In this document: in pieces, positions 102 through 15,737 of the stretch
Numbering within the stretch: the first letter of the stretch is position 1
How the letters are laid out: each line of letters starts with the position of its first letter
From: Bdellovibrionota bacterium
GTDB lineage: Bacteria > Bdellovibrionota_C > UBA2361 > JAAYZI01
Assembly: GCA_050950765.1 (NCBI GenBank)
Contig: JBMNIF010000002.1
Location: 128,001 to 192,000 of the forward strand
Direction of reading: 5' to 3'
DNA length: 64,000 nucleotides
Program-made: the position numbers and the translations under genes
Notes under the pieces: generated by a model
Databases searched by the model: none
The model's input: only the letters and a program-made list of their open reading frames with translations
Told to the model about the DNA's origin: nothing

Positions 102-2123
102 CTATTTCTTTTCTATAATATCAGCCAGCTCGAGTCGCGCCTTTTCCCAAACATCAGGATCAGTGGACCAACTGATATCTGTAACGACCCAAGTGGGGTC
201 TTGCGGATCTGAGACACCGTATTCCCAGAGTGTTTTCGGAACCACTCTTGAAACAATCTCTTGTACCTTTTTAGGGTTTTTAGCAGCAGCCAATGTTAAA
301 TAATCAACATCCTGCAAACCGCGCCGCCAATGTTTTAGGCGTAAGCTGGCGATAGGTCCCTCTATATTATAAGAGCTTGCTGGAAAGACTCGGTCTGTTC
401 CAGGATAAAAAAGCACCCCATCTCCGTTACCGTAATTCCAACCGGTCTCACCTATGACAGGATCCACCTTTGTTTTACCGCCGAAAGTGTGTGCCTCTTT
501 AAAAACATCACTCTCACCTGTTCCGCCTTGAAAGTTATTGTAATAAGTGGACTCCCAGTAAAACCATCTTTCGATACCGTGCTTATACTGAGCCCACGCC
601 AACTCTCTCAAAGCCACACCATCATCCTCAATCATAAAGGAACCACTTAGCGGACGACTCCCGTTATAGAACCACAACTTACCATTTTTTTTGTTCCGAT
701 AATATTTCTGAGTTTTTTCCCACTCTGCTGGAATACCGAGACCTCCAGTTGTGCAAGCGATATCCAGAGATGGCATCTTTTTAGCGGCTTCAATAGCAGG
801 TGCTGTGGCAAAGGTTAATAAATTACGTCCGATACCGGAGTGCTCTTTAAAGGAACGCGCCAACTCCTCTATTTTAGGATAATCAATTGATTCATCTATC
901 AGATAGAGAAAATATTCAGTTTGTGGAGAATTTTTAGCAAACCACTTTGCCCAATTATCTGCACGTTTCATACGATGAGATTTTTCTCCCCAATCCCATT
1001 TGCCATAAGTTCCGATTGAAAAGACACCATTTCCAACACCGATCCCAGGACCGTTATAACCGGCTTCATTTTTAAAGAGCGATCCGTTTAGGCGCGGAAT
1101 CCAAACGTCAATAGGGGCGTCCTCTTTATGCACCCCTTCATTATCATCAATCATAGAGATCTTATGACGATGCGCCATCTGAAAATGGCGATCGCGAATT
1201 TTCTCAAGTTTAGTGAGGTTAGCAGCACCTTCGTGCCAAGTCTTCCCTAAATACCTCTTAGCGATATCTGAATATCCGAGATACAACATAGTCTTAGCTG
1301 ACGGGGTATCTGGCAGGGTAAAGTTTCTAACACTTAACGCAACAGGGATCTCTTTTATTACACTATTATTTTGTAAAATCTTAAAACTACCGTTATAGGT
1401 ATCTGCTGGAGTATTTTTCGGGATGAAGATATCAACCCAGACGCTTTGACTATTTCCTTTTTTAATATTTAGTGTTCCAAAAACCTCTTGTGGCACTGCG
1501 ATATCGGGATAAGCCTTGTCGTGATCGGGTCTACTTTTCCAGTCCCCCGTCCCTTTTTTCCCTTCATGTGGTCTACGGAATCTTTCCGGCACATGTCTTT
1601 CATCATAATAGTTTTCATAAGCGATTAAACTTAAACCTTTTATCGGAAGGTAGCGCACTATAAATATCTCGATATTTCTTCCGTTATAATCGAAGATATC
1701 AGCAGCGCTCTGTGTTTTTTTAACACTATCAGAAAATTTAGATTTTGTTGCTAGTGGTGATGCATTCGAGATCCTAAGACCCGCTTTATTACTAAGCGTA
1801 TCAAATTGAAATGTTAAACCGTTTAGATCAGTAGTAGGTGCTTCGATTATTAAGTTAAATGAGATAACTTCATTTTTCCCACCGAAAAGACTCACCTTCT
1901 TCCCATCCCAGAGGAAGTTTAAGATCTTTTCTTCACCTTTTTGAGATAACGGCAGGTCTTGTTGCGGAACTTTTTTCTCTCCGTTATTAACCCAGACCTT
2001 CAGTGGTGTAGCTTCTTTTGCTAACGCCTCTTTTACGGATACCTGTTCCGGAACACCATTTTCCATAATATAGCAGATCCCTATAAGAGCACCTACTATA
2101 AAGAGCGTTAAAGATTTCTTCAT
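102..2123 (-). CDS. Secreted or membrane-anchored DUF4091 / GH123-like glycoside hydrolase-family protein
   Basis: 673-aa ORF with N-terminal hydrophobic segment; C-terminal GDGVLFYPG...SLRLKHWRRGLQDVDYL motif typical of DUF4091 proteins. Confidence 0.6.
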   Translation of the reverse strand: MKKSLTLFIVGALIGICYIMENGVPEQVSVKEALAKEATPLKVWVNNGEKKVPQQDLPLSQKGEEKILNFLWDGKKVSLFGGKNEVISFNLIIEAPTTDLNGLTFQFDTLSNKAGLRISNASPLATKSKFSDSVKKTQSAADIFDYNGRNIEIFIVRYLPIKGLSLIAYENYYDERHVPERFRRPHEGKKGTGDWKSRPDHDKAYPDIAVPQEVFGTLNIKKGNSQSVWVDIFIPKNTPADTYNGSFKILQNNSVIKEIPVALSVRNFTLPDTPSAKTMLYLGYSDIAKRYLGKTWHEGAANLTKLEKIRDRHFQMAHRHKISMIDDNEGVHKEDAPIDVWIPRLNGSLFKNEAGYNGPGIGVGNGVFSIGTYGKWDWGEKSHRMKRADNWAKWFAKNSPQTEYFLYLIDESIDYPKIEELARSFKEHSGIGRNLLTFATAPAIEAAKKMPSLDIACTTGGLGIPAEWEKTQKYYRNKKNGKLWFYNGSRPLSGSFMIEDDGVALRELAWAQYKHGIERWFYWESTYYNNFQGGTGESDVFKEAHTFGGKTKVDPVIGETGWNYGNGDGVLFYPGTDRVFPASSYNIEGPIASLRLKHWRRGLQDVDYLTLAAAKNPKKVQEIVSRVVPKTLWEYGVSDPQDPTWVVTDISWSTDPDVWEKARLELADIIEKK

Positions 2124-2537
2124 ACTACTCCCCTTTTTTTAGTCTTATCATGCTGCACGGAAAATATTTCGCTCGGTCGCACCTCACGCAGCACCTGCAA
2201 CCGAAGCAAAACCTATCACTTCACTTAACCTCTAAGTGTAGGTACTTTTTTCTTTTTAGAACACCCACTTTTAGCTAAATTTTTAGTTTCCGCTAACATT
2301 TTGATGTTATTAAACTATTACAAGGTTAAATTCCACCCGCCTCATTACAAAGCGCTCGATAAAGATGGGCGGGGCCTTATTTACTATACTTTCTCTCACC
2401 ATTCTTATTTTTACGGGCGCATTTTCACAACACCTTTTTCAAGCTTGAAACTTTTAAAGAGATAGGGCGCACAACCTTTTTTTGCACTTTTTCTCTAAAT
2501 AGCTGCTGAAGTGAAATACTTATGCACAAACATAATA

Positions 2538-3875
2538 TTATAAATATCCTAAGCTTTTTAATTCTCTTATCTGTTTTTTATTAAACTCAATCTGTGGCTT
2601 ATCGTTATCAGTTTGTAATTCTACTTTATTGGAAAAATCCATCATCTCTTTTTTCAGAAGTTCTATCCTAGTTTGGTAACTTCCCTCATTTATAAGATCA
2701 TTTTCTTCTAAAGGATCTAAACTAAGATCATAAAACTCATAAGTATTAGTCTTTCTATCTAAAATCAATTTATCTAATTTTTTAATTATGGCAATTTTAT
2801 CTACATTTCTAATTTTTTGCGCAGATTTAAACGAGACCTCTGCAAAAACAGAACGTGAGGCAGGGATCTCTTTTGTTTTTATTAAATCGATCCCCAAAAG
2901 TGGGGAGCTTTCGTTGAAGAGACCTAAAATAGTGGGAAGGATATCTATCTGAGAAACATTACCGCGAATAACTTTATGACTTAAATTTTTTGCCCTGATT
3001 AATAATGGAACATGCATTAGTTCGTTATAAAGAGAACGGGTGTGTCCTATCCAACCTCTATCTAAAAGCTCCTCTCCGTGGTCTGCCGTAAAAATAATAA
3101 TGGTATTATCCAGCAATTTTGAGTCTTCAAGATATCTGTATAGACGCAACAAAGCACGTTCTGTAAAAGTTATTTCTTCGTGATAGAGGGCGTTTAATTG
3201 AATTTTATCAGTTTGAGTAAAGGTAGAAGATTTTCTAACAGCAACTATATCTACATCGCCTGAAAAAACGCCTTTATAGTTTGGGTCTGTATAGTAGATA
3301 TCAGAATGATCCTTGTAATTTATATGTGGATCAAAATAATGAGCGAACATAAAAAAAGGCTTTTTTGGATCTCTTGCTTTTAAAAATGAAATGACCTCAT
3401 CTGTAACAAGGTCACCAACTATAGTATTGTGCTGATCTTTTTTATTGACGTTTTTACAAATTTGAAAATCTTTCGTTATTCCACTGGATCTATTAATAAT
3501 CGAACTCGAGATTACAGACATACTTTGGTATCCCTTTGTCTGTAAATAGTTAGGAATCGTCTTGATATTATCTGCTAGGACACTACTCATCTTTGTTACA
3601 CCATGATCCCTTGGATATAACCCCGTTAAAATGGTTGCTACGCTAGGTTTTGTCCATGAAGAAGCAGCATAACTATCACGAAAAATCCAACTATTTGGTG
3701 AGATTGTCTTTAAAAATTCGCTTTCGATTGTAATTTCTGAGTTATACAAAGGCAGATGCTTTGCAGCTAAAGTATCTACAACTATCAAAAGAATATTAGG
3801 ATCTTGTTGAGCCTTTTTTGTGCAAGAAGTAAACGCAAATAACAAAACTACTGCCGCAACAAAGAATTTACGCAT
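2538..3875 (-). CDS. Sulfatase-like hydrolase (alkaline phosphatase superfamily), probable lipoprotein
   Basis: PNILLIVVDTL, SWTKPSVATILTGLYPRDHG, HYFDPH, ADHGE, GH motifs and LKSLGY C-terminus; lipobox-like FTSC; lacks the canonical CxPxR. Confidence 0.85.
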   Translation of the reverse strand: MRKFFVAAVVLLFAFTSCTKKAQQDPNILLIVVDTLAAKHLPLYNSEITIESEFLKTISPNSWIFRDSYAASSWTKPSVATILTGLYPRDHGVTKMSSVLADNIKTIPNYLQTKGYQSMSVISSSIINRSSGITKDFQICKNVNKKDQHNTIVGDLVTDEVISFLKARDPKKPFFMFAHYFDPHINYKDHSDIYYTDPNYKGVFSGDVDIVAVRKSSTFTQTDKIQLNALYHEEITFTERALLRLYRYLEDSKLLDNTIIIFTADHGEELLDRGWIGHTRSLYNELMHVPLLIRAKNLSHKVIRGNVSQIDILPTILGLFNESSPLLGIDLIKTKEIPASRSVFAEVSFKSAQKIRNVDKIAIIKKLDKLILDRKTNTYEFYDLSLDPLEENDLINEGSYQTRIELLKKEMMDFSNKVELQTDNDKPQIEFNKKQIRELKSLGYL

Positions 3876-3908
3876 AAATATACCCTTTATGATAAATCTA
3901 AAAGGTAA

Positions 3909-3936
3909 ATAATATGCCGAGATTATATTCTGTCAA
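3909..3936 (-). promoter_or_regulatory. Putative sigma70 promoter of the sulfatase-like gene
   Basis: Minus strand TTGACA (3936-3931), 16 nt, TATTAT (3914-3909), about 33 nt upstream of the ATG at 3875. Confidence 0.5.
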
Positions 3937-3940
3937 ATTC

Positions 3941-3973
3941 ATTTCAATCCACGCGCTTCGTAAGAAGCGCGAC
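3941..3973 (-). CRISPR. Solitary type I-C-like CRISPR repeat
   Basis: Minus strand GTCGCGCTTCTTACGAAGCGCGTGGATTGAAAT (33 nt): GTCGC start, GCGCTTC/GAAGCGC hairpin, GTGGATTGAAAT end; no second intact copy and no type I cas genes in the window. Confidence 0.8.
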
Positions 3974-4463
3974 AGTAAAATCATTAGATAAAAAGCATTT
4001 TACTTTTTTTATCCTTAATGATTTTTATTACATCTTCTAGACTATAATATTTCAGGCTTCCCAGTTCAATATCCATTATTCCTTCAATCTGATGCCTCAA
4101 AGTGGCGAACTCTGCTGTAATAATCACGCACTAAAAATATAGATTAAGTTAATCTATAATTACATTCCCCCTTTTTCATTTTTAATAAGGAGCATATCTA
4201 CAATAGTAGAAATTTAAATAAGACCTTAAACTCGCACCTCGCGTGAGGTGCGTGGATTATCTACAATAGTAGAAATTTAAATAAGGTCTTAAACTAACAT
4301 AGCGCTATCTAGCCCACTGATATCTACAATAGTAGAAATTTAAATAAGGTCTTAAACAGATATAAATATCTGGAACTGTGCTGGTTCAGCGTGAAATGGA
4401 CATTTGAGGTGCTGAAAAAAGCTACTATAATAGCCTGAGTGATATTAACTAATGGGGTGAATA

Positions 4464-4769
4464 ATGGGAAAACATTTTAGTGCAGAAGATAAGGTTAAGA
4501 TACTGAAGGAGCATTTATTAGGAAATAAGCCGTTATCGAGTTTATGCGATAAATACGGCGTACACATTAGTACATTTTATGAATGGCAGAAGCTATTATT
4601 TGAGGGAGCTATCCAAATTTTTGAGCGGAATAAAAATGGTAGGAAAGAAGAAAAGAAGCAAGCTGAACGGATAGATATTTTGGAGAAGAAGCTAACGAAG
4701 AAGGATTCTGCGCTAGCGGAGCTTTTGGGGCTTCATATAGATTTAAAAAAAAAGCTTGGGGAGCTTTAA
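4464..4769 (+). CDS. IS3-family transposase OrfA (HTH)
   Basis: 101 aa, FSAEDKVKIL...LSSLCDKYGVHISTFYEW HTH followed by a coiled coil; ends in an A9G slippery run. Confidence 0.92.
   Translation: MGKHFSAEDKVKILKEHLLGNKPLSSLCDKYGVHISTFYEWQKLLFEGAIQIFERNKNGRKEEKKQAERIDILEKKLTKKDSALAELLGLHIDLKKKLGEL
4745..4768 (+). other. Programmed -1 ribosomal frameshift signal joining OrfA and OrfB
   Basis: AAAAAAAAAG at 4745-4754 overlapping an AAAGCT/AGCTTT inverted repeat; the -1 frame is open from here (KKKAWGALTKRWVEPQIRDEV) into OrfB. Confidence 0.8.
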
Positions 4770-4804
4770 CGAAGCGTTGGGTTGAGCCACAAATACGAGA
4801 TGAG

Positions 4805-5767
4805 GTGATAGATTTTGTACATGAATGGCAAGAGAAATCAGAAATGAAGCGGGAGATGTTTATAAAGAGGTTAGGGATAACACGGAGCAAGTACTATGCT
4901 TGGGAAAAACATTACGGTAAAGAGAACTTTCATAACGGGCTAATTCCGAGAGATTACTGGCTATTACCCAGTGAAAGGGAGGCTATTATTAAGTATTATT
5001 TAGAGCACTCAAGAGTAGGTTATCGAGCATTAACATACATGATGCTTGACGCAGATGTTGTGGCAGTATCCCCTGCGACGACCTATAGAGTATTGAAAAG
5101 TGCTGGCTTAATGCGTTGCTGGAATGGTTTAAAAAGCAAGAAAGGGACAGGATTTGAACAACCACTTAACCCGCATGAACATTGGCATACGGATGTTTCA
5201 TATATCAATATTTGTGGCACATTTTACTATTTTATTGGAGTTTTGGATGGATGTAGTCGGTATTTAGTTGCATGGGACATTAGAGAATCGATGAAAGAAA
5301 TAGATATTGAAGTAGTATTACAAAAGGCTAGAGAAAGTTTTCCAGACGCAAGACCGCGAATTATTTCAGATAACGGTTCAGCCTATATTTCAAAAGAGTT
5401 TAAGAATTTTATAAAGATATCTGGTATGACTCACGTCAAGACATCACCGTTCTATCCACAATCGAACGGTAAGATGGAGAGATTTAATGGGACATTAAAA
5501 GTAGAAGCGATACGACCTAACACTCCAGTATCACTTGATGATGCGAAAACTATAGTGAGTAAGTTTGTCGAAGAATATAACAATCAGCGGTTACATTGTG
5601 CGCTAGGTTATATAACACCAAATGATAGATTGAATAACAAGCAAGAGGAGATATTTAGAGCTCGAGACAGCAAATTGGAAGCTGCTAGAGCACATCGCAA
5701 GTTAGTAAGAGAGGGGTACCCCTCTCTTACTAACTACAACATTGAACAACAAGCTCAGGTGTGTTAA
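4805..5767 (+). CDS. IS3-family transposase OrfB (DDE/rve integrase core)
   Basis: WHTDVSYI, ISDNGSAY, SNGKMERFNGTLK and YNNQRLHCALGYITP motifs. Confidence 0.95.
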   Translation: MIDFVHEWQEKSEMKREMFIKRLGITRSKYYAWEKHYGKENFHNGLIPRDYWLLPSEREAIIKYYLEHSRVGYRALTYMMLDADVVAVSPATTYRVLKSAGLMRCWNGLKSKKGTGFEQPLNPHEHWHTDVSYINICGTFYYFIGVLDGCSRYLVAWDIRESMKEIDIEVVLQKARESFPDARPRIISDNGSAYISKEFKNFIKISGMTHVKTSPFYPQSNGKMERFNGTLKVEAIRPNTPVSLDDAKTIVSKFVEEYNNQRLHCALGYITPNDRLNNKQEEIFRARDSKLEAARAHRKLVREGYPSLTNYNIEQQAQVC

Positions 5768-6209
5768 CTAGGGTTTTGTGGCATGACAAAAGTCCATTTC
5801 CATCAGAGGCAGAACAGAACCACGATATATCTACAATAGTAGAAATTTAAATAAGGTCTTAAACATTCCGAAAAGTACTCCCACAACCTTATCTACAATA
5901 GTAGAAATTTAAATAAGGTCTTAAACACCTATGAGGACGGATCTTATAGTTTTATCTACAATAGTAGAAATTTAAATAAGGTCTTAAACGTTAGTTATTA
6001 TTCGAGGCAAAGGTAAAATCTACAATAGTAGAAATTTAAATAAGGTCTTAAACTAGTTATTCTAATAATAATTTAATCTTATCTACAATAGTAGAAATTT
6101 AAATAAGGTCTTAAACGATAAATCGCAGAGTTAAAACAGCCCGATCTACAATAGTAGAAATTTAAATAAGGTGATCTACAATAGTAGAAATTTAAATAAG
6201 GTCTTAAAC

Positions 6210-6334
6210 CCTTACGGTTAATAACCTTATCTTTTTTGTATGATTTTTACCAGAAAAACCACTTTTTTTGCCAAATTTAGTCAATTTAAGACCTTATTTT
6301 TCACATTTCCAAAATTAAGACTGAGGTTTGCATC
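6210..6334 (-). promoter_or_regulatory. CRISPR leader
   Basis: AT-rich non-coding segment between the cas2 stop and the first repeat; the degenerate repeat is at the opposite end of the array. Confidence 0.8.
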
Positions 6335-6610
6335 TCAATCTACGACCAGTATGTCAGCATTTTCATTTTCTGCATAGCCCCAACGTGTGATTTTACAATT
6401 TTGACTAGTTTCTATTATTATTACACTATCTGTTTGGCTAAATCGTTTTTCAAAATTATTCGTTATTTCATTCATTATATTATCAAGCAAACGTTTGCTA
6501 TTCTTTATTTTAAATACTGAATATTGCAGTCGATAACCAAATTTTTTTAGATACTTTGAAAAATGAGTTCGCAATTTATTATCTTGTATGTCATAACTAA
6601 TTATTATCAT
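6335..6610 (-). CDS. cas2: CRISPR-associated endonuclease Cas2
   Basis: IISYDI...RLQYSVF motifs; 91 aa; last gene before the array. Confidence 0.97.
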   Translation of the reverse strand: MIIISYDIQDNKLRTHFSKYLKKFGYRLQYSVFKIKNSKRLLDNIMNEITNNFEKRFSQTDSVIIIETSQNCKITRWGYAENENADILVVD

Positions 6611-7574
6611 AAGAAATCACCGCTTTTGGAAATGTATCTATATCCTTCCCCTTCATAAACCATCTGTAATATTGCTGAATATAATCAAATATAATTGTCC
6701 TGTTTTTTACTATTTCTTCTAAGATTAAAATTATAAATTTTCTACTATCCTCCCAGCTTAAATTATATTGATAGTTATTAATAATAAACTTATAATTTTT
6801 TGCCTGCCCAAGATTTATAATTTTTCTTATTTTATAATCAATAATCGGTCTAAATGGCTCTATTATATCACACACTAAAGACTTTCTCTTATAAAACTCT
6901 TTGTGCAGGTTCCCTTTATAAACATCAAATCCGTAGATATTTAATATTGCTTCCAAATAATTAAACAAAACAGTATAGCCGATATCTAATAATAAATTTA
7001 TCTTATCCCTTTTTATCCTCGGCTGTCTGCCATGCCACTCAAAGTCTTTAAATAAACGATTAAAATATACCTTAGCCCCAACTCCCTCATATCCCATTAT
7101 CTCATAAGAAGTAATTTTAGCATTATTTTTGATTTCTTTAATCAGTTCTTCTAAATTTTTTATTCCATCAAAAACACTCTTATCTCTTAATTTTTTTAAT
7201 ATAAATACCTGATTTTCAATCTTATTTATTATAATTTGTTTTGCAATTTCAGTTTCATTTATATTTGTATATTGCTTCTTTCTTAATAGAGTATTGCCTT
7301 CAAGCGAAAAATTAATTGTTGAATACACTTTAAAACTTGCTGAAAATAAAACAATTGAAAAACCAAATTTTTTACTTCGTAGTATTATTCCTGAAGTAAG
7401 AGTTATTCCCCCCACAACAAACACAGCAAATAGCCTATAACAACTAAGTTGTACTTTTATCTTTTTATCTGAATCCGTTATTACTATATTATCATTCTTA
7501 AATGATATTTTATCACCATCTTGAGGAAAAACTAAAATAACCTTCTTTTCTATAAAATCAGGCTTTGTTAACAC
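6597..7574 (-). CDS. cas1: CRISPR-associated integrase Cas1 (type V-A)
   Basis: MGYEGVGAKVYF, INLLLDIGYTVL and SLVCDIIEPFRP motifs; overlaps cas4 and cas2. Confidence 0.97.
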   Translation of the reverse strand: MLTKPDFIEKKVILVFPQDGDKISFKNDNIVITDSDKKIKVQLSCYRLFAVFVVGGITLTSGIILRSKKFGFSIVLFSASFKVYSTINFSLEGNTLLRKKQYTNINETEIAKQIIINKIENQVFILKKLRDKSVFDGIKNLEELIKEIKNNAKITSYEIMGYEGVGAKVYFNRLFKDFEWHGRQPRIKRDKINLLLDIGYTVLFNYLEAILNIYGFDVYKGNLHKEFYKRKSLVCDIIEPFRPIIDYKIRKIINLGQAKNYKFIINNYQYNLSWEDSRKFIILILEEIVKNRTIIFDYIQQYYRWFMKGKDIDTFPKAVISYDNN

Positions 7575-8128
7575 ATCAAACTCCTGTCACAAGCAGGTTC
7601 ATATATACATTTTTTACATTTTTCCACATTTGTTTGCTGAAAATTTTCCATATTAAATTCATGTATTTCTTTAATGAGCGCCTTAAAACGATTATCCATA
7701 ATAAGATCATCTCTAGGTAATAAAATGTCGTAATTTTTATTATCTTTCAAACTATGGAATCTGATTTTTTTAACATCATAGCCCATTTCTGAAAGTGCAT
7801 AATATTGTGCATAAACTTGAAAAATATATCCGTCATATATGGTAGTAATTTTATTTTTCCTCTCCGTTAAAATGCCTTTGTCTATATCAAAAACATCTAT
7901 TTTCCCCCGTATCCCAAAAGTTTGAGAATAAACATCAATCCCTTGCAATATATTTTTTTTATCTGAATAAGAGCTCTTATCAATTGTTTTATGTGCATTC
8001 ATGCCGTCAATTTGGCAAGTTGATTGATAAAGATTTTTATCTAATGCCCCGTATAATTTATGAAAATAGATTGATACAGGACAAAAGATAAAATCATTTA
8101 AATAAGAGATAAGGATAATTTCTTCCAT
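7568..8128 (-). CDS. cas4: CRISPR-associated Cas4 (type V-A)
   Basis: ISYLNDFIFCPVSIYFH, GKIDVFD, ERK, QVYAQ and the C-terminal CxxCxxxxxC Fe-S motif. Confidence 0.96.
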   Translation of the reverse strand: MEEIILISYLNDFIFCPVSIYFHKLYGALDKNLYQSTCQIDGMNAHKTIDKSSYSDKKNILQGIDVYSQTFGIRGKIDVFDIDKGILTERKNKITTIYDGYIFQVYAQYYALSEMGYDVKKIRFHSLKDNKNYDILLPRDDLIMDNRFKALIKEIHEFNMENFQQTNVEKCKKCIYEPACDRSLMC

Positions 8129-8130
8129 TT

Positions 8131-11100
8131 TTAGGCTTTATCTAATCCTTGTACATAAGAAAGCCACTCTTGTTTATTTATGGCAAAATTAACTTTCCTT
8201 CCAGTTGATTCTCTAATTCTTTCTAATATCATCAATCCTTTTCGTGCAATATTATAAGCGCCATTTGCATCCGCATCTAACGGTAAGTTTTTATCTTGTT
8301 TCCTTGAATCATAAAATTCTCCAGACTTATTTTTCACAGGAGACAAAATATAATCTTCTCTTGAATTTGTTATACTATTTCTTAACTGTAATAGTAACTT
8401 AAATAAAGAATAAAATCCTAAGTAACCATCCTTTTCTTTTGTCGCACTAAAAAATTTCGCTTTTTCATTTTGGAGTATACCTTCTTTTATACGGCTTAAG
8501 TCTATCTCATATCTTTTAAATAATTCTTTAAACTCATCTGTTAAATTTATTTCTTCATTATCCCAATTACTATTTTTTTCTGGATTCCTAAAAGAACGGA
8601 CTCTTTCTCCATAAGAACAAAGAGTCCACTCATCTCTTATTCCATAGCTTCCGCCTGTAAAATTAGAATATTTGAATATAAATTCAAAATAATTTTCTTC
8701 TTCGTTATATCTTATATCATCAAATTTTTCGATAAAACTTTTATCAACTTTTTTTAAATCAAATAAATTTACAAAGCCTGTTGTCGGGTCAATCTTGCTT
8801 GTGCACCAAGCAGGAATATAAAAAATGACTCCATTTTGTGCACCTTTAGAATCAGGCTTTGCAAGTTGATAAGCATTTAGTATACCGCCTTGATCTTTTT
8901 TATTAGCAACATCCTTACTTATAAGATAAGATAATTTATTTACAAGCATTGTTTCAAATTTATCATAAACCTGTTTTTCAACTTTTTTTCGAGAATTTTT
9001 AAATCCTCCACTTAAGTCTTCAAGCACAATTATTGCATTATATTTAAGCATAAGCTTAACAATCTTATGAACAACTTGGCTCATATAACCTTCTTTGAGC
9101 TCTTTTATTGTTTCAATTTGATCCCAGCTTTTCCTTGCCTCATCCCTATCTTTTTCTTTTTTATTAAGCGCTGCACGATAATCTGTTTCATATGTAACTC
9201 CATTATATTCATTAACTATATTATTAAGGGAGCACTGTTCAACAATTTCACCTTCTGAATTAATAACAGATAAATAAATTAAATGTCTTTCCCCTCTGTC
9301 TATCCCTATAAGATAAATATCTTTGTTTGCTTTTAAACTATCGTTAACAATTTCATTAATATTATTAAATCCTTTACATTTAAAATTCATCGCCACAGGA
9401 ACATGAAATAAAAATTTATCTACTGAATAGCGCCTATCTTTTATTAAATCATATTCAAACTTACTTTCTTTTTTTGGATTTTTTTCATTTTTGTTTGGAA
9501 TAGGTTCATTAGCTGGATGTGTAATTTTTGCCTCTATACTTTTTTTCCGATAAAAAATTTCTGCTTGACCATTTAATTTATAGACGACATCTTTTAAATT
9601 ATCTTCATCAAATAAGGCTTTCCAATACATTGTATGCAAATTAGGTTTTCCCTTACTGTATTCTGAAAAATCCTTATTGTAGATTTTAAATAGATACAAT
9701 TTCCCATCATTAACTAATTGATCTATATAACCTGCAGAGATGTTTTTAAAATTTATTTTATACCCTTGTTGCTCAACTTCTTTATAAAATTGGCTTATAT
9801 CTTCATATGAAGATGTTTCACTAAATCTAAAATTAAATTTTTTCCAATCATCATGTTTTTCAATAGATCTTTTAAAAAAATCTATTAATTCATGACAAAA
9901 ATCTATATCAAATTTCTCCCCCTTTTTATGACACCCGTCTTGATATTTCTCTAATAATTCAACAGATGGATTAAAATTTTCTCTTCCCTTCTCAGATGAA
10001 ATAAAAACTTTCGGCAACATTTTATTAGCACCAGGTAATAGTTTATACTCCATCTTTTTATAGCTGTTTTTTTGATCTAGTTCTTCCCCTATTTCACTAA
10101 AAATTCCCCTATCCCTACTATCTATAATGCCCAAATAATAAATTCCGTTTCTTTCAAATATCGTGCATGAATTGTCTTTTTCTTTATTTAAATCCCATCC
10201 ATCTAAAAGAGTAGGGTTTTTAAAGTTAAGCTTCATCTTCTCAGTCGAATACGGTTTTTGAGTTAAATAATTTCTCACCTTATTATAAAGAGGAATTATT
10301 TCTTTCAAATCGTCGTATCTCAATAATTCATAAAAATTATTATCAGTTTCTATCTCTTCAACTTTCGGGACTAAAAGTTTTACAAAGTCGTGAAGCTCTT
10401 TTAAATTATCAAGAAAATTTTTAATTATATTTTTTTTAGCTCCATCTTTAACTAAATTTTTTAATCCTTCTCCATAATCTTCATTTTGAATTTCATCAAA
10501 CTTTTTATAAGCCTCCTCTATTCCTGATTTAATGCTTTTTATAACTGACCCATTTGGTTCAGTTTCACAAACCATATCGCTAGTTAAATGCTCTTCAAAA
10601 TATTTTATAAGCTTCTCTTTATTTTCTTTATCATATCTCAAGACGAGGCTTTCAAGGTATTCAACAGATAATACTTTATCTTTCTTTAAGCACTTTCCTC
10701 GCTCTGCAATATATTTTTCAGAATCGATATTTTTATTTTTCCCTGTATAATTTTCATTATATTCCCTTTCTCTTAGACTATTGAGATAGCTCCAATCGTT
10801 ATAAATCTTCTTTGATATATTTGTTAAGGACTCAGCATTAATATAAATTTTACTTAACTCAAAATCTCTTATATTTTTAAATGCATAAACAAGTCCTTTG
10901 TTCTCATTACTAAAAAGTAGATCATTAATTTTGATATAGTAATCTTGGATCTCTTTTATCAACTGTTCATCATCTTCAATCTTATCAATTTTAAATGAAG
11001 CTGTATTTGTATCACTTAGTATCTGTTTATATAAAAGTTTTAATTTAGGGAGTTTTTTACTTTTATCTTCTTGTTGATTTTGATTATGTAAATTTACAAG

Positions 11101-11907
11101 CTCATTTATTCCTTGAATTTTCTTATTCCCTTCTTCAGTTTTTCCAGAAATCGCAAGATTATAATTTTCTATCTGATCTTGTGTAAGGATATCTTTATAT
11201 TTTTCTACAACACTAAATAATTCATCTGTATTTAAGCTTAAATTTCTTTCTATTTTATCCTTAATTTCTGGAATTGCTTCTTTTATTTTTTCAAAATATT
11301 TTATATTTTTTATAAAAGTTGGTAAATTTTGATCGATCAATCTAAATGATATGGCTGTAGATTTATCTTCTTTTGAATAAAAATTTTCTCTATTCTTATT
11401 ATAACCTGTAAAATATGTTGTGAATTTATTAAATATTTCTATATCACTTAATACTTCTTTATCCTCGGCGTAAAAAACTTTTAGATAAGAATTGATGATC
11501 TCTTTACCAAACAGCCCTTTATATTCATCATCCTCTGTAAAACTTTCAGAAATCATTGTGCGTAACTTTTCTTTAACTTTATTAAGAGGCGAATCTTCTT
11601 TATTACTTTTATTTTTACTCTGTGTATCTGTTTTTAAAGTTTCTATATATTCTTTTTCATATTCTTTTAATAAACCAGCAAAAGCATCGTTGCTATTTAA
11701 TTTTTTCAAACATCTATCTATAAAAATTTTATGATACTCATCACAATATTTTTTAACGACTTTAAACTTTTCTGCTTTTAGCTCATCTTCTTCTAGAATA
11801 TTTTTCTCAAAATATTCTTTCGTTCTGCCTTGCGGCTGCAATTCAAATCTCAATGTTTTTGAAACTTGGTATAAATTGTGCATTTCATCAAATAATTTTT
11901 TACTCAT
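8131..11907 (-). CDS. cas12a: Type V-A effector Cas12a (Cpf1)
   Basis: 1258 aa; LYQVSKTLRFEL, YNKVRNYLTQKPY, YKLLPGANKMLPKVF; RuvC motifs IGIDRGERHL, VLEDL and DADANGAYNIARKG intact. Confidence 0.99.
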   Translation of the reverse strand: MSKKLFDEMHNLYQVSKTLRFELQPQGRTKEYFEKNILEEDELKAEKFKVVKKYCDEYHKIFIDRCLKKLNSNDAFAGLLKEYEKEYIETLKTDTQSKNKSNKEDSPLNKVKEKLRTMISESFTEDDEYKGLFGKEIINSYLKVFYAEDKEVLSDIEIFNKFTTYFTGYNKNRENFYSKEDKSTAISFRLIDQNLPTFIKNIKYFEKIKEAIPEIKDKIERNLSLNTDELFSVVEKYKDILTQDQIENYNLAISGKTEEGNKKIQGINELVNLHNQNQQEDKSKKLPKLKLLYKQILSDTNTASFKIDKIEDDEQLIKEIQDYYIKINDLLFSNENKGLVYAFKNIRDFELSKIYINAESLTNISKKIYNDWSYLNSLREREYNENYTGKNKNIDSEKYIAERGKCLKKDKVLSVEYLESLVLRYDKENKEKLIKYFEEHLTSDMVCETEPNGSVIKSIKSGIEEAYKKFDEIQNEDYGEGLKNLVKDGAKKNIIKNFLDNLKELHDFVKLLVPKVEEIETDNNFYELLRYDDLKEIIPLYNKVRNYLTQKPYSTEKMKLNFKNPTLLDGWDLNKEKDNSCTIFERNGIYYLGIIDSRDRGIFSEIGEELDQKNSYKKMEYKLLPGANKMLPKVFISSEKGRENFNPSVELLEKYQDGCHKKGEKFDIDFCHELIDFFKRSIEKHDDWKKFNFRFSETSSYEDISQFYKEVEQQGYKINFKNISAGYIDQLVNDGKLYLFKIYNKDFSEYSKGKPNLHTMYWKALFDEDNLKDVVYKLNGQAEIFYRKKSIEAKITHPANEPIPNKNEKNPKKESKFEYDLIKDRRYSVDKFLFHVPVAMNFKCKGFNNINEIVNDSLKANKDIYLIGIDRGERHLIYLSVINSEGEIVEQCSLNNIVNEYNGVTYETDYRAALNKKEKDRDEARKSWDQIETIKELKEGYMSQVVHKIVKLMLKYNAIIVLEDLSGGFKNSRKKVEKQVYDKFETMLVNKLSYLISKDVANKKDQGGILNAYQLAKPDSKGAQNGVIFYIPAWCTSKIDPTTGFVNLFDLKKVDKSFIEKFDDIRYNEEENYFEFIFKYSNFTGGSYGIRDEWTLCSYGERVRSFRNPEKNSNWDNEEINLTDEFKELFKRYEIDLSRIKEGILQNEKAKFFSATKEKDGYLGFYSLFKLLLQLRNSITNSREDYILSPVKNKSGEFYDSRKQDKNLPLDADANGAYNIARKGLMILERIRESTGRKVNFAINKQEWLSYVQGLDKA

Positions 11908-13118: not shown

Positions 13119-15737
13119 TCACTTATAACAATCCTCATAAGCCTTACACATCCTCTCCACACTATACAAAGTAGCGCCCCACTCCGCATTCTCTGCAGCA
13201 CTTTGTAATAGCTTTGGATAAGAAGCTTCTAAAGATTTAACAATACTCTCAACACACTCCGCCCCTTGCTGCGGATCTTCAAGGCTATAAAGGGAAGCAT
13301 GCGATCTTAAAAACTCATGCCCGACTATCTCGGATAAAACAACAGGTAAGCCTGCTGCTACCGCCTCTAACGGCCCAAGTGGATGCCCTTCAAAAGTTGA
13401 GCTTGAAACAAAGATATCTGCAGCTTGACACCACTTTTGCGGCACCAATGTCTTACCGGAAAAGAAAACGTGCTCAGAAGAAAGACCCGCTTGCGCCTGT
13501 TTTTTTACATCAGCGGCAAAGTCAGTCCAGTTATCAGGGCCAACAAAGATTAAAGCCGTTTTTTGTCTAACCTCTTCTGATAAACTCCACCATAATTTCA
13601 AAGTCTCATGCTGCCCTTTTTCCGAACTAATTCTAGCTACATTTATAATCCACAACAGATCTTGAACAGTACGCAGTTTTTCTGCCACGTCAGGCTTGAG
13701 CGTATCCAAAAGAGCCGCTCTGATCTCTCTTTTTTCATTTAAGTCCTGCGGCAACGGATAAAAATCAATACCGTTCTCTATAATTTTTATCTTTTTAGTA
13801 GGCACCCCTATTTTTTCATAATATTTCTTAGTGCCTTCAGAAACAACGACCAGTTCATCAACAAAAAGACTAAAAATCCTACTATACAACCTGTGCTTTC
13901 TATCTTTATCAAAACCAACGAAGCTGTGTTGCGTATGAACAACCTTAACACGTCTCGGACAAAACAGCTTTGCCAATGTTGCATAGATCATGGCGTTCAG
14001 ATCATGCGAGTGCAAAACGTTAATCCTTTCACGCAAAATTTTTCGAACCAATCTAAAAACAGTTCTACAAGAGAAACCTTCCCTCTTTTGTAGCAGATCA
14101 AGCTTAATTCCTGCTGCTTCAAATTCAGGAACTAACCCAACTTCATTGCCATTTAACTTATCATAAGCGAAAACAGAGACTTCAAAACCGTTTTTACCAT
14201 TAATATTCTTTGCCAGTGCCAAGACAACTCGCTCTAAACCGCCGATCCATAAATTTTGGCAGACCATTACAACACGTTTTGTTTCATCTAAATGCTTCAT
14301 CGGAAGCTTCCATATAACTAAAGACACAAAATAAAATAATGCAAACAAAGGACCGCAGACAATACCCCAAACAACAGAGGCAGGAAAAGTTTTCCCAAAT
14401 AAAACAATGTCTGTAAAAAACTCCTTCAGATACACCACTATCACAGATAAAACGATGCAAATTATTATGTTATGCGCTAACGGACGAAGTGAACAATATT
14501 CCCGCACCTTCCAACCTGTACTTTTCCCCGCATACCATAAACCATAGAGACGCATTAAGGCACGCACAACTAAAGACGCTATCAAGGCACCATAAGCCGC
14601 CCAGCCCCAAGCAAAAAATGAGCACAACAGTAAGGATAAGCCAGAGAAAAAGACAAAGTTCCACAAGATCCAACGTCCTTGTCCACGTGCTCTCGGTATT
14701 AAGTCATTCGGAAAGATTAGGAGGAAATAACCGATTGCAGAAAATCTAAGATAGCCGACAGCGGCGTGATACTGCGCAGGAAACAGAAGATCGATGATGC
14801 TATCCGCAAAAACAGATATCCCAAAAAAAGCAGGAACTAAAATTATCGCCAACTGCTCCATCGTGGCATAATGTATCGCCGCAGCTGCTGGATAATTTTT
14901 CAGAGCCATTGCTTTTGAGATCTCAGGCAACATCACTCTAGCTACCGAATATTCATACATAAAGAGCGGCGCAATCGCTAACGATCCGACAGCATAAATG
15001 GCGAAATCACTTTTTGTAAGAAACTGAGAGAGTATAAATTGATCAGCATAATTGATTAAAATAGATAAAAGCCCTGCAACAGAAACGGGAAAGGCGTAAC
15101 GATAGATCGCTTTGAAAGTTTTTTTATTCCAGATAAGTCGTGATAGGTGTAATTTATAAGCAGAACAGTAACCGATAACTGTTTTTACTGAAACAGTCGT
15201 AACCTGTGCAATAAAAACTGCAGTAACTGTTTTATAATTCCACGCTGCAAAAACGATCGTTGCCGTTCTAAGCACTTCAAACAACGCATAGAAGATACCG
15301 CCACGCCACCCCCTGCCAACACTAATAGCACCTTCTTCAAAAAACCTACCTGCTGTTTCTCCTAAAACTGCAACACCCAGCAACATTACATGCTCGACCT
15401 TCAGATCAAGCCACGTAGCTATCGGAACGGCAAAAACCGATACAAGCACCATTAAAAATAGTCCCTGTAAAAGGATTAGCCATGAGGTCATCTGAATCGA
15501 TCGGCGACCCTCTTGCCCCTGCCCCGCCCAATACGACAATCCGTTTATCAGTCCAGTTGTCATAGACACACCTGGAACTAACAATAGATAAAGGAAGAAA
15601 ATTTTATATACTCCGAAGCTGTCAGGATCTAAAACTCGCGCCAGAACGATGGGCAGCAACACATTAAATAATGAGGCGCAACTCGATAGAATTGAGACCG
15701 GCCAATGATTGCGTATTTTCGGTGCATCTTCTGACAT
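13119..15737 (-). CDS. Fusion of a Wzx/MOP-type polysaccharide flippase and a GT4 glycosyltransferase
   Basis: N-terminal ~480 aa multi-pass membrane region (LARVLDPDSFGVYK, YADQFILS); C-terminal GT-B domain (GGLERVV, HSHD, SEKG, EGHPLGPLEA). Confidence 0.85.
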   Translation of the reverse strand: MSEDAPKIRNHWPVSILSSCASLFNVLLPIVLARVLDPDSFGVYKIFFLYLLLVPGVSMTTGLINGLSYWAGQGQEGRRSIQMTSWLILLQGLFLMVLVSVFAVPIATWLDLKVEHVMLLGVAVLGETAGRFFEEGAISVGRGWRGGIFYALFEVLRTATIVFAAWNYKTVTAVFIAQVTTVSVKTVIGYCSAYKLHLSRLIWNKKTFKAIYRYAFPVSVAGLLSILINYADQFILSQFLTKSDFAIYAVGSLAIAPLFMYEYSVARVMLPEISKAMALKNYPAAAAIHYATMEQLAIILVPAFFGISVFADSIIDLLFPAQYHAAVGYLRFSAIGYFLLIFPNDLIPRARGQGRWILWNFVFFSGLSLLLCSFFAWGWAAYGALIASLVVRALMRLYGLWYAGKSTGWKVREYCSLRPLAHNIIICIVLSVIVVYLKEFFTDIVLFGKTFPASVVWGIVCGPLFALFYFVSLVIWKLPMKHLDETKRVVMVCQNLWIGGLERVVLALAKNINGKNGFEVSVFAYDKLNGNEVGLVPEFEAAGIKLDLLQKREGFSCRTVFRLVRKILRERINVLHSHDLNAMIYATLAKLFCPRRVKVVHTQHSFVGFDKDRKHRLYSRIFSLFVDELVVVSEGTKKYYEKIGVPTKKIKIIENGIDFYPLPQDLNEKREIRAALLDTLKPDVAEKLRTVQDLLWIINVARISSEKGQHETLKLWWSLSEEVRQKTALIFVGPDNWTDFAADVKKQAQAGLSSEHVFFSGKTLVPQKWCQAADIFVSSSTFEGHPLGPLEAVAAGLPVVLSEIVGHEFLRSHASLYSLEDPQQGAECVESIVKSLEASYPKLLQSAAENAEWGATLYSVERMCKAYEDCYK

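Follow-up and report, generated by a model that had tools for sequence, protein, structure and literature searches.

Why does the oldest spacer of a Cas12a array look like the repeat of a different type of CRISPR array? The question is raised by a locus in a 64,000-nucleotide stretch of DNA (the window in what follows) from a metagenome-assembled genome in five contigs that is 94% complete. The locus lies at the left end of the window, on the minus strand, with its components in the order cas12a–cas4–cas1–cas2–leader–array (genes assigned with Pfam). It is complete and intact-looking, and consists of the following parts.

8131..11907, minus strand: cas12a, 1258 amino acids (Pfam REC1, REC2, PI, RuvC_1 and NUC; 1247 bits to the solved Cas12a 8qwd in the PDB)
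7568..8128, minus strand: cas4 (Pfam Cas_Cas4; 34–54% identity to cas4 of other V-A loci)
6597..7574, minus strand: cas1 of the V-A type (Pfam Cas_Cas1)
6335..6610, minus strand: cas2 (Pfam CRISPR_Cas2)
6210..6334, minus strand: probable leader of the V-A array, judged by its location after cas2 and before the first repeat
5829..6209, minus strand: leader-proximal part of the V-A array, with six full repeats, five spacers and one 30-nt truncated repeat (6144–6173)
about 4377..5816, plus strand: insertion sequence of the IS3 family within spacer 3, ends approximate (Pfam HTH_Tnp_1 and rve)
4464..4769 and 4805..5767, plus strand: orfA and orfB of the IS3-family element
4259..4376, minus strand: two intact V-A repeats, spacer 2 and the first 19 nt of spacer 3
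4232..4258, minus strand: oldest V-A spacer, antisense of the inner 27 nt of a type I-C repeat (sequence comparison, contig check and folding)
4196..4231, minus strand: degenerate terminal V-A repeat with two changes (GACC for GGTC) and an intact 3′ handle

The assignment to type V-A follows from the effector, a Cas12a with a single RuvC nuclease domain, and from the 36-nt repeats, which end in a TCTAC-loop-GTAGAT handle and point in the same direction as cas12a–cas4–cas1–cas2. The array extends from 6209 down to 4196, and its minus-strand repeat reads GTTTAAGACCTTATTTAAATTTCTACTATTGTAGAT, with the Cas12a handle at the 3′ end. All three RuvC motifs of Cas12a are present (IDRGE, LEDL and DADANGAY), and judged from its sequence the enzyme looks nuclease-competent. 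It also carries an NKMLPK motif, which we take to be the PAM-reading motif; a 5′-TTTV PAM is assumed for it, as for the Cas12a family. The Cas1 protein is 35–48% identical to the Cas1 of 13 other V-A loci, compared with 23–27% for I-C Cas1. Inheritance of cas4–cas1–cas2 from an I-C locus is thus ruled out, as this Cas1 is of the V-A type. A search of phages and plasmids gave no convincing protospacers for the other V-A spacers of the locus. The locus is flanked by sulfatase/GH123 and glycosyltransferase genes.

The IS3-family element has related inverted ends at its flanks and splits spacer 3 into halves of 19 and 8 nt, which together give 27 nt. It separates the leader from the two oldest V-A spacers. 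Contigs of other sequencing runs stop or branch at 4376/4377, and one of them (X4 record 9) spans this IS junction. The stretch was found in 20 runs of 12 studies, all of them bioreactor, digester or landfill metagenomes, and none of the listed runs that carry it is an RNA dataset. The only other CRISPR–Cas locus of the genome is of type II, with a Cas9 of 1072 amino acids, cas1 and an array. Among 91 genomes of the order, Cas12a occurs in this one only (1/91), and so do I-C-type repeats, apart from one lone match with one mismatch elsewhere. Since both are nearly absent from the other 90 genomes, the whole island looks imported.

The spacer at 4232–4258 reads TCGCACCTCGCGTGAGGTGCGTGGATT in the window, and in the orientation of the crRNA it starts with AATCCACGC. 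As cas12a, cas4, cas1, cas2, leader and array follow each other on the minus strand, this spacer is the leader-distal and hence the oldest unit. It lies between the degenerate terminal repeat (4196–4231) and a perfect 36-nt repeat (4259–4294), and its length of 27 nt falls among the 26–28 nt of the other spacers of the array; it thus has the two flanking repeats and the array's own spacer length of a spacer acquired by Cas1–Cas2. Two of its segments, GCACCTC and GAGGTGC, were predicted to pair, and the RNA indeed folds into an 8-bp hairpin of −14.9 kcal/mol, a value reached by none of 200 shuffled sequences. The hairpin takes in guide nucleotides 7–26, and the handle hairpin of Cas12a is still predicted in the crRNA. 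Cas12a guides that pair with themselves should be less active.

The original prediction recognized in this spacer a type I-C repeat that lacks its first base and its final GAAAN, and natural repeats bear this out. With the loop left free and one genome taken per species, we found 47 loci with I-C repeats of the form G+TCGCACCTC-NNNN-GAGGTGCGTGGATT+GAAAT/C, most of them long arrays; they belong to 28 assemblies, as counted by accession prefix. The family form derived from these 47 loci is a repeat of 33 nt that begins with GTCGC, continues with a 7–8-bp G+C stem and a 4-nt loop, and ends in GTGGATTGAAAT/C. The spacer follows this form over positions 2–28, that is without the first base and the last five. 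The closest natural repeats match it at 26/27 positions, with loops GCAT or GCGA in place of GCGT. The GCAT group includes Enterococcus, Marasmitruncus, Akkermansia and Egerieisoma assemblies together with a Cloacimonadota MAG (locus L044, 40 copies, 26/27), and the GCGA group consists of two loci of one Acidaminococcaceae MAG. The likeness is far beyond chance. In all 47 loci, moreover, the flanks G...GAAAT/C put TTTC immediately upstream of AATCCACGC on the strand that has the sequence of the guide, so that the predicted PAM geometry holds for every natural copy.

The exact source of the spacer did not turn up. The 27-mer has no further copy in its own genome, none in the viral contigs of IMG/VR and none in the metagenome collection, and the GCGT loop is absent from the 47 loci of the species genomes. 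The claim of a real PAM-directed acquisition is supported as regards spacer length, flanking repeats and the TTTC geometry, but the match to a source is 26/27 at best and never 27/27. An array of such repeats beside I-C cas genes, which had been named as a check, does exist on a Bacillus cereus plasmid: cas3–cas5c–cas8c–cas7c accompany I-C arrays of mixed repeat variants, one repeat of which resembles the spacer at 26/28. This location means that I-C arrays do travel on mobile DNA, and the mixture of variants that mosaic I-C arrays do occur in nature. A phage-borne I-C decoy or mini-array was also considered as the source and rejected, with 0 matches in IMG/VR for the spacer's stem family or for that of the lone repeat described below; GenBank phages likewise gave no good match for a phage-borne I-C source.

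A second I-C element lies 258 bp beyond the V-A spacer. The features of this region are the following.

3941..3973, minus strand: residual I-C array with one complete 33-nt repeat, GTCGCGCTTCTTACGAAGCGCGTGGATTGAAAT, of a stem variant other than that of the spacer
3942..3972, plus strand: TTTC PAM (3942–3945) and partial target of the guide (3946–3972), with nine contiguous PAM-proximal matches and 19/27 overall
3909..3936, minus strand: best sigma-70-like promoter match of the region, TTGACA-16-TATTAT, 11/12 (consensus match only)
2538..3875, minus strand: sulfatase gene, left neighbour of the CRISPR island (Pfam Sulfatase, 5e-42)

The repeat at 3941–3973 is the sole I-C-type repeat of the genome. 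It has the whole I-C repeat form and folds with −13.5 kcal/mol. Compared with the repeat implied by the spacer it differs at 8 of 33 positions, in a compensatory manner in the stem (GCGCTTC/GAAGCGC as against GCACCTC/GAGGTGC), which marks it as a natural variant in its own right and not as a product of decay. In a contig of run X7, positions 3803–3974 are followed by 33 other letters and then by 3941–4242, which amounts to a repeat, a 33-nt spacer and a repeat; the V-A spacers here, for comparison, measure 26–28 nt. A true I-C array thus once stood here, with the lone repeat as its stump. Both X7 copies are of the same variant as 3941–3973. Given this and the eight differences, the spacer probably does not derive from the surviving repeats, and the sequences point to another or a mosaic I-C array as its probable source.

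The cas3–cas5c–cas8c–cas7 genes of an I-C system are not found in the same genome as the stump. Searches of this genome (94% complete) gave no match for Cas8c, Cas7 or Cas5d; the Cas8c search was silent in control genomes too and so carries little weight alone. Between the stump and the V-A array, positions 3975–4195 have no homology, beyond the repeats themselves, to the flanks of the I-C or V-A arrays that were compared. The site at 3942–3954 is the only PAM-flanked seed match of the guide in the 64-kb window, and with a population variant, G to A at 3955, the contiguous match grows to 11 nt. Judged by pairing, the guide should not be able to cut the stump with its match of 9 nt and 19/27.

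Do other V-A arrays hold such a unit? In the metagenome collection we looked for AATCCACGC immediately after a Cas12a handle, a search that fixes the first nine nucleotides of the units. It returned ten metagenome contigs, which represent at least five V-A repeat families besides that of the window. What is independent of the search is the further likeness to I-C repeats, the I-B units described below and the positions of the units. All ten contigs continue AATCCACGC with [A/G]CCC, as I-C repeats do. An array is present in seven of them, and there the unit is last or second-to-last and is followed by the family's own degenerate terminal repeat; the other three hold an orphan handle-plus-unit. 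One of these contigs, L059, is the array-less counterpart of L054 and shares its downstream genes. The idea that only the seed of these units is I-C-like was ruled out in part by the unit of L050 and L052, which agrees with a natural Bacteroidales I-C repeat (L099) at 24/27 positions along its entire length. In the L051 family, all eight differences from the nearest natural I-C repeat fall within nucleotides 14–27. The degenerate or orphan copies of L054 and L057–L059 keep a 19–20-nt Cas12a handle intact, and the rest of the repeat has decayed. Genes of the VapE/DUF3874 type, known from mobile elements, adjoin the L051 array.

Two of the families carry a second trailer unit, AATTCCATAAAGGT[G/A]CGAT..., which matches a type I-B repeat, GTTTC followed by AATTCCATATAGGTACGATTAAGAC. 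This I-B repeat is present in 41 copies in one genome (G450), with variants in three other genomes, and adjoins cas6, cas3, cas7, cas4 and cas1b. The unit derived from it likewise has TTTC immediately before its first base and corresponds to the other strand from that of the I-B crRNA; indeed every repeat-derived unit begins directly after the TTTC of its source repeat type. When 421 V-A units (handle plus 27 nt) were scored against 34 foreign repeats, a score of 19/27 or higher was reached by 17, every one of them an orphan or in last or second-to-last position, and no score above 16 occurred among the remaining 404.

The trait is rare. In Bacteroidales, where 15 of 401 genomes have Cas12a, none of the 11 V-A arrays with a visible trailer carries the unit, and none of 401 sampled Lachnospirales genomes does, the five pattern matches there being chance matches outside V-A arrays. 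A trailer unit universal to V-A arrays is ruled out by these two samples. The Cas1 of the window locus is only 35–36% identical to that of L051, and among the V-A loci sampled, those closest in Cas1 whose trailer end is visible have no such unit. For these two reasons the sequences make separate captures more likely than a single inherited relic, with the exception of L050 and L051, whose I-C units look related.

We propose that the spacer at 4232–4258 is a genuine early capture of a rival I-C repeat and is by now mostly a fossil, and we give this reading a probability of about 0.65. Type I-C and I-B repeats end in ...ATTGAAAC/T, and their opposite strand reads GTTTC or ATTTC and then AAT..., which supplies a TTTC PAM once per repeat and therefore makes a rival array a multi-copy protospacer. 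A V-A adaptation module that newly shares a cell or island with such an array would be likely to draw its first spacers from it. The V-A Cas4–Cas1–Cas2 proteins would have taken the spacer from a type I-C array, probably while that array adjoined the V-A locus. The trailer-end position would then be explained by a capture early in the history of the array. A loaded guide would direct Cas12a to every matching repeat of the rival array, which would then have been lost, perhaps together with its cas genes. After this loss no more such spacers could be obtained, and the units would remain the oldest of their arrays. It is our inference that the rival array was cut and erased by Cas12a and that the events took this order. 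The surviving repeats are probably not the source, and for this reason the account of an erased neighbour needs a mosaic or a second array. Most likely the unit is now a fossil, or a weak guide at most: its present activity is doubtful because the IS element splits the array from its leader and because the guide is paired with itself in a strong hairpin. With the insertion in spacer 3, transcription from the leader may no longer reach the unit. More generally, Cas12a systems that enter a genome or island with type I arrays might take their first spacers from those repeats, with guides that cut or blanket the array until it collapses and a frozen trailer unit left as the footprint. We offer this extension tentatively and would rather bet against it.

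It could also be that the unit is a selected, pre-armed weapon, kept by mobile V-A cassettes as a guide against the commonest repeats of host arrays, I-C and I-B, so that the CRISPR memory of a recipient is wrecked or silenced or rival elements that carry type I systems are excluded. The recurrence of the units in V-A loci whose Cas1 is merely 35–36% identical, the pairing of I-C and I-B units in two families and the foreignness of the V-A locus to its host order would all be expected of such a device. The mobile-element genes next to the L051 array and the plasmid-borne I-C arrays would fit as well, and there is a precedent in the conserved residual arrays of E. coli with spacers against the cas genes of an absent system (PMC2886076). 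The window V-A locus, however, has sulfatase/GH123 and glycosyltransferase genes as its neighbours and no sign of a mobile element. Several units have drifted from any hairpin-forming repeat, a pattern more easily reconciled with neutral decay than with the upkeep of a cutting guide, and the trait is rare among V-A loci. We regard a maintained weapon as unlikely.

A function in regulation has also to be weighed. The unit might work today as a guide of the CreR/CreA/crlRNA type, with which Cas12a binds I-C repeat DNA through partial PAM-proximal pairing and does not cut it. Its target here would be the lone I-C repeat, which lies 4 bp above the −35 box of the promoter match that faces the sulfatase gene; elsewhere the targets would be the repeats of a co-resident I-C array, whose transcription would be damped. 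The site at 3942–3954, with TTTC and nine contiguous PAM-proximal matches, is of the kind required, and the 9–10 PAM-proximal pairs are at the level reported for V-A regulatory guides in the Cracr study (10.1101/2024.10.29.618823). The region's best promoter match is directly adjacent to the site, in a geometry that resembles that of the M. bovoculi CreR (10.1101/2023.03.10.532045). The handle is kept while the repeat decays in L054 and L057–L059, the differences of the L051 family are confined to nucleotides 14–27, and the variant at 3955 lengthens the contiguous match. Shared I-C ancestry, though, also predicts this partial, PAM-flanked match: a seed match comes automatically when both sequences are I-C repeats, and selection is not needed to explain it. 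Nor is the guide–target pair conserved, with a PAM-flanked seed target within 3 kb of the unit in 0 of the 10 other contigs; the first nine nucleotides of the other units were fixed by the search. The unit does not lie beside a regulated cas or toxin gene; there is no rationale for a link between Cas12a and the sulfatase gene, and the known V-A CreR elements are placed upstream of cas12a and not at the trailer end. The IS element and the hairpin speak against expression and activity. On balance we find a regulatory role quite improbable.

Last, an artefact or a coincidence, in which the spacer is a V-A/I-C assembly chimera (a possibility that the original prediction had itself raised) or a palindromic non-CRISPR element resembling an I-C repeat, is refuted as far as contigs can show and can practically be dismissed: repeat arrays are prone to mis-assembly and the genome is a metagenome assembly, but the contigs of two other studies (X4 record 6, 3908–4286, and X5 record 12, 3700–4288) agree with 0 differences, so that the spacer is not a chimera, the stretch recurs in the 20 runs mentioned above, all fixed I-C positions and the stem complementarity fit, and the 47 natural loci match at all but the loop.

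The early capture of a rival repeat would have consequences for how CRISPR systems are viewed. The common view is that they are directed against phages and plasmids and that co-resident systems either cooperate or take no notice of one another. With a spacer that matches a repeat, every repeat of the rival array becomes a target for a single guide. The presence of repeat units at the oldest position of several unrelated arrays, together with a stump in a genome that has no I-C cas genes, suggests that conflict between CRISPR systems helps to decide which systems a genome keeps. Such a conflict, if true, would also account for some orphan arrays and lost systems.

How does the unit compare with known systems? 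Self-targeting spacers, reportedly treated by Stern et al. in 2010, have their target in the same genome, and survival is said to require loss or mutation of that target. Their likeness to our case, and that of CRISPR-driven genome remodelling, is that the target lies or once lay in the same genome. The target here differs in being another CRISPR array, which is tandem, dispensable and easily collapsed, and the units stand at the start of their arrays in several lineages.

Comparable too are the V-A CreR (10.1101/2023.03.10.532045) and the viral Cracr (10.1101/2024.10.29.618823), described as a handle plus a guide that pairs over 9–10 PAM-proximal nucleotides beside a promoter. The unit of the window likewise combines a handle with a guide that has a 9-nt PAM-proximal match beside a promoter match. 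CreR and Cracr, however, lie upstream of cas12a and target its own promoter, whereas the window unit is the last spacer of an array and corresponds to a whole foreign repeat. Among the V-A solitary repeat units (Shmakov et al., 2023; PMC10120712), a remnant in F. hispaniensis after loss of the locus is resembled by the remnants L057 and L059. In the available parts of the CreR, Cracr and solitary-repeat-unit papers there is no mention of guides that resemble the repeats of other CRISPR types, and a full-text search of the literature outside subscription journals and supplements turned up no paper in which spacers are said to match repeats from a CRISPR type other than their own.

The Racr RNA anti-CRISPRs are solitary repeat units of phages, according to Camara-Wilpert et al. 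(2023; PMC10651486), and the I-C repeat at 3941–3973 resembles them in being a lone repeat outside its own system. It differs in that it is chromosomal, forms a two-repeat mini-array in run X7 and, like the spacer, belongs to a stem family without IMG/VR matches. The phage or plasmid carriage that marks Racr and viral solitary repeats is not seen here, and the repeat looks like an array stump, not a decoy of the Racr type.

The nearest precedent is given by the E. coli spacers against cas genes described in 2010 (Touchon and Rocha, 2010; PMC2886076). In the residual I-F arrays of E. coli, conserved spacers match I-F cas genes that are absent from the genome; as here, old conserved spacers are directed at CRISPR–Cas components that the genome lacks, and these ‘anti-CRISPR’ arrays were read as a guard or a scar. 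The two cases differ in their targets: in E. coli they are cas genes of the array's own subtype, I-F, whereas here a class 2 V-A array is directed at the repeat of another type, I-C, and I-B in relatives. What is new in the present case is the I-C stump beside a V-A array, the recurrence of I-C and I-B trailer units in other families and the rarity of the trait.

At the leader end of the V-A array, the full repeat at window positions 6174-6209 is directly adjoined, with no intervening spacer, by a truncated 30-nt repeat (6144-6173) that retains the Cas12a handle; the newest V-A spacer is therefore preceded by a shortened repeat. Within the leader, part of the V-A repeat's 5′ portion recurs in inverted orientation (6283-6298, reading TTTAAGACCTTATTT on the plus strand). 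Two further features lie within the array or just beyond its trailer:

Window 4377-5816, IS3-family element inside spacer 3, dividing the spacer into 19 and 8 nt
Window 3984-4076, minus strand, candidate 30-codon ORF (MDIELGSLKYYSLEDVIKIIKDKKSKMLFI) in the interval separating the V-A trailer from the I-C stump (the lone type I-C repeat at 3941-3973)

The sequence GAAC is present on both sides of the IS3-family element, and the junction between array and element is also found in metagenome run X4. Contigs from other runs branch at 4376/4377, and the element therefore has further copies elsewhere. The candidate ORF is accompanied by GAAGGA, a motif resembling a ribosome site. In the neighbouring I-C stump, a G-to-A population variant at position 3955 was seen in metagenome run X12; this change disrupts a stem pair of the I-C repeat and lengthens its contiguous match with the guide of spacer 1, the oldest V-A spacer, from 9 to 11 nt.

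Two metagenome contigs that harbour I-C-like V-A units were also considered. The first (L058) contains, at 281-3083, an orphan V-A handle with I-C-like and I-B-like units, 1.5 kb downstream of a cas1–cas2 pair that is not of V-A type (25% identity to V-A Cas1); it seems to be a V-A remnant lying beside another CRISPR system. On the second (L054), the second-to-last unit (2547-2571, AATCCCCTATAAGCGGGTTAAAAAT) starts with AATCC as well; its source may be the repeat of a third family, with the end ...GGGGATTGAAAC.

Outside the V-A locus, its own genome and an archaeal virus each provided one feature:

C2:1221201-1226114 of the same genome, outside the window, the genome's second CRISPR–Cas locus, of type II, with Cas9, cas1 and an array
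Methanosarcina virus MetMV, MK170447.1 near 14855-14886 (about 380-445 of locus L107), intergenic, solitary Cas12a handle AAATTTCTACTATTGTAGAT

The Cas9 of the type II locus is a protein of 1072 amino acids with HNH and RuvC_III domains, and the array comprises at least eight repeats spaced by about 66 nt.

Two type I-C loci in other organisms were also noted. At the plasmid-borne locus of B. cereus (NZ_CP117422.1, 64.4-66.2 kb), no adaptation genes are annotated in the stretch examined; the 3′ end of cas7 is duplicated together with the leader, and the repeats of two arrays are unusually heterogeneous. In a Bacteroidales MAG (about 1150-1330 of locus L015), one good repeat between two degenerate ones forms a type I-C mini-array, which looks like a regulatory mini-CRISPR of the CreR/CreA type belonging to a type I-C system.

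Among the viruses, the crAss-like phages cr55_1 and cr1_1 contain a 30-nt stretch that is 89% like the V-A repeat (about 1501-1530 of locus L080); it has a broken handle stem, overlaps a gene end and is probably no functional repeat unit. The MetMV handle is identical to that of the V-A locus in the window; after it come a spacer-like stretch and a hairpin with a T-run, the layout described for viral Cracr/crlRNA elements and present here in an archaeal virus.
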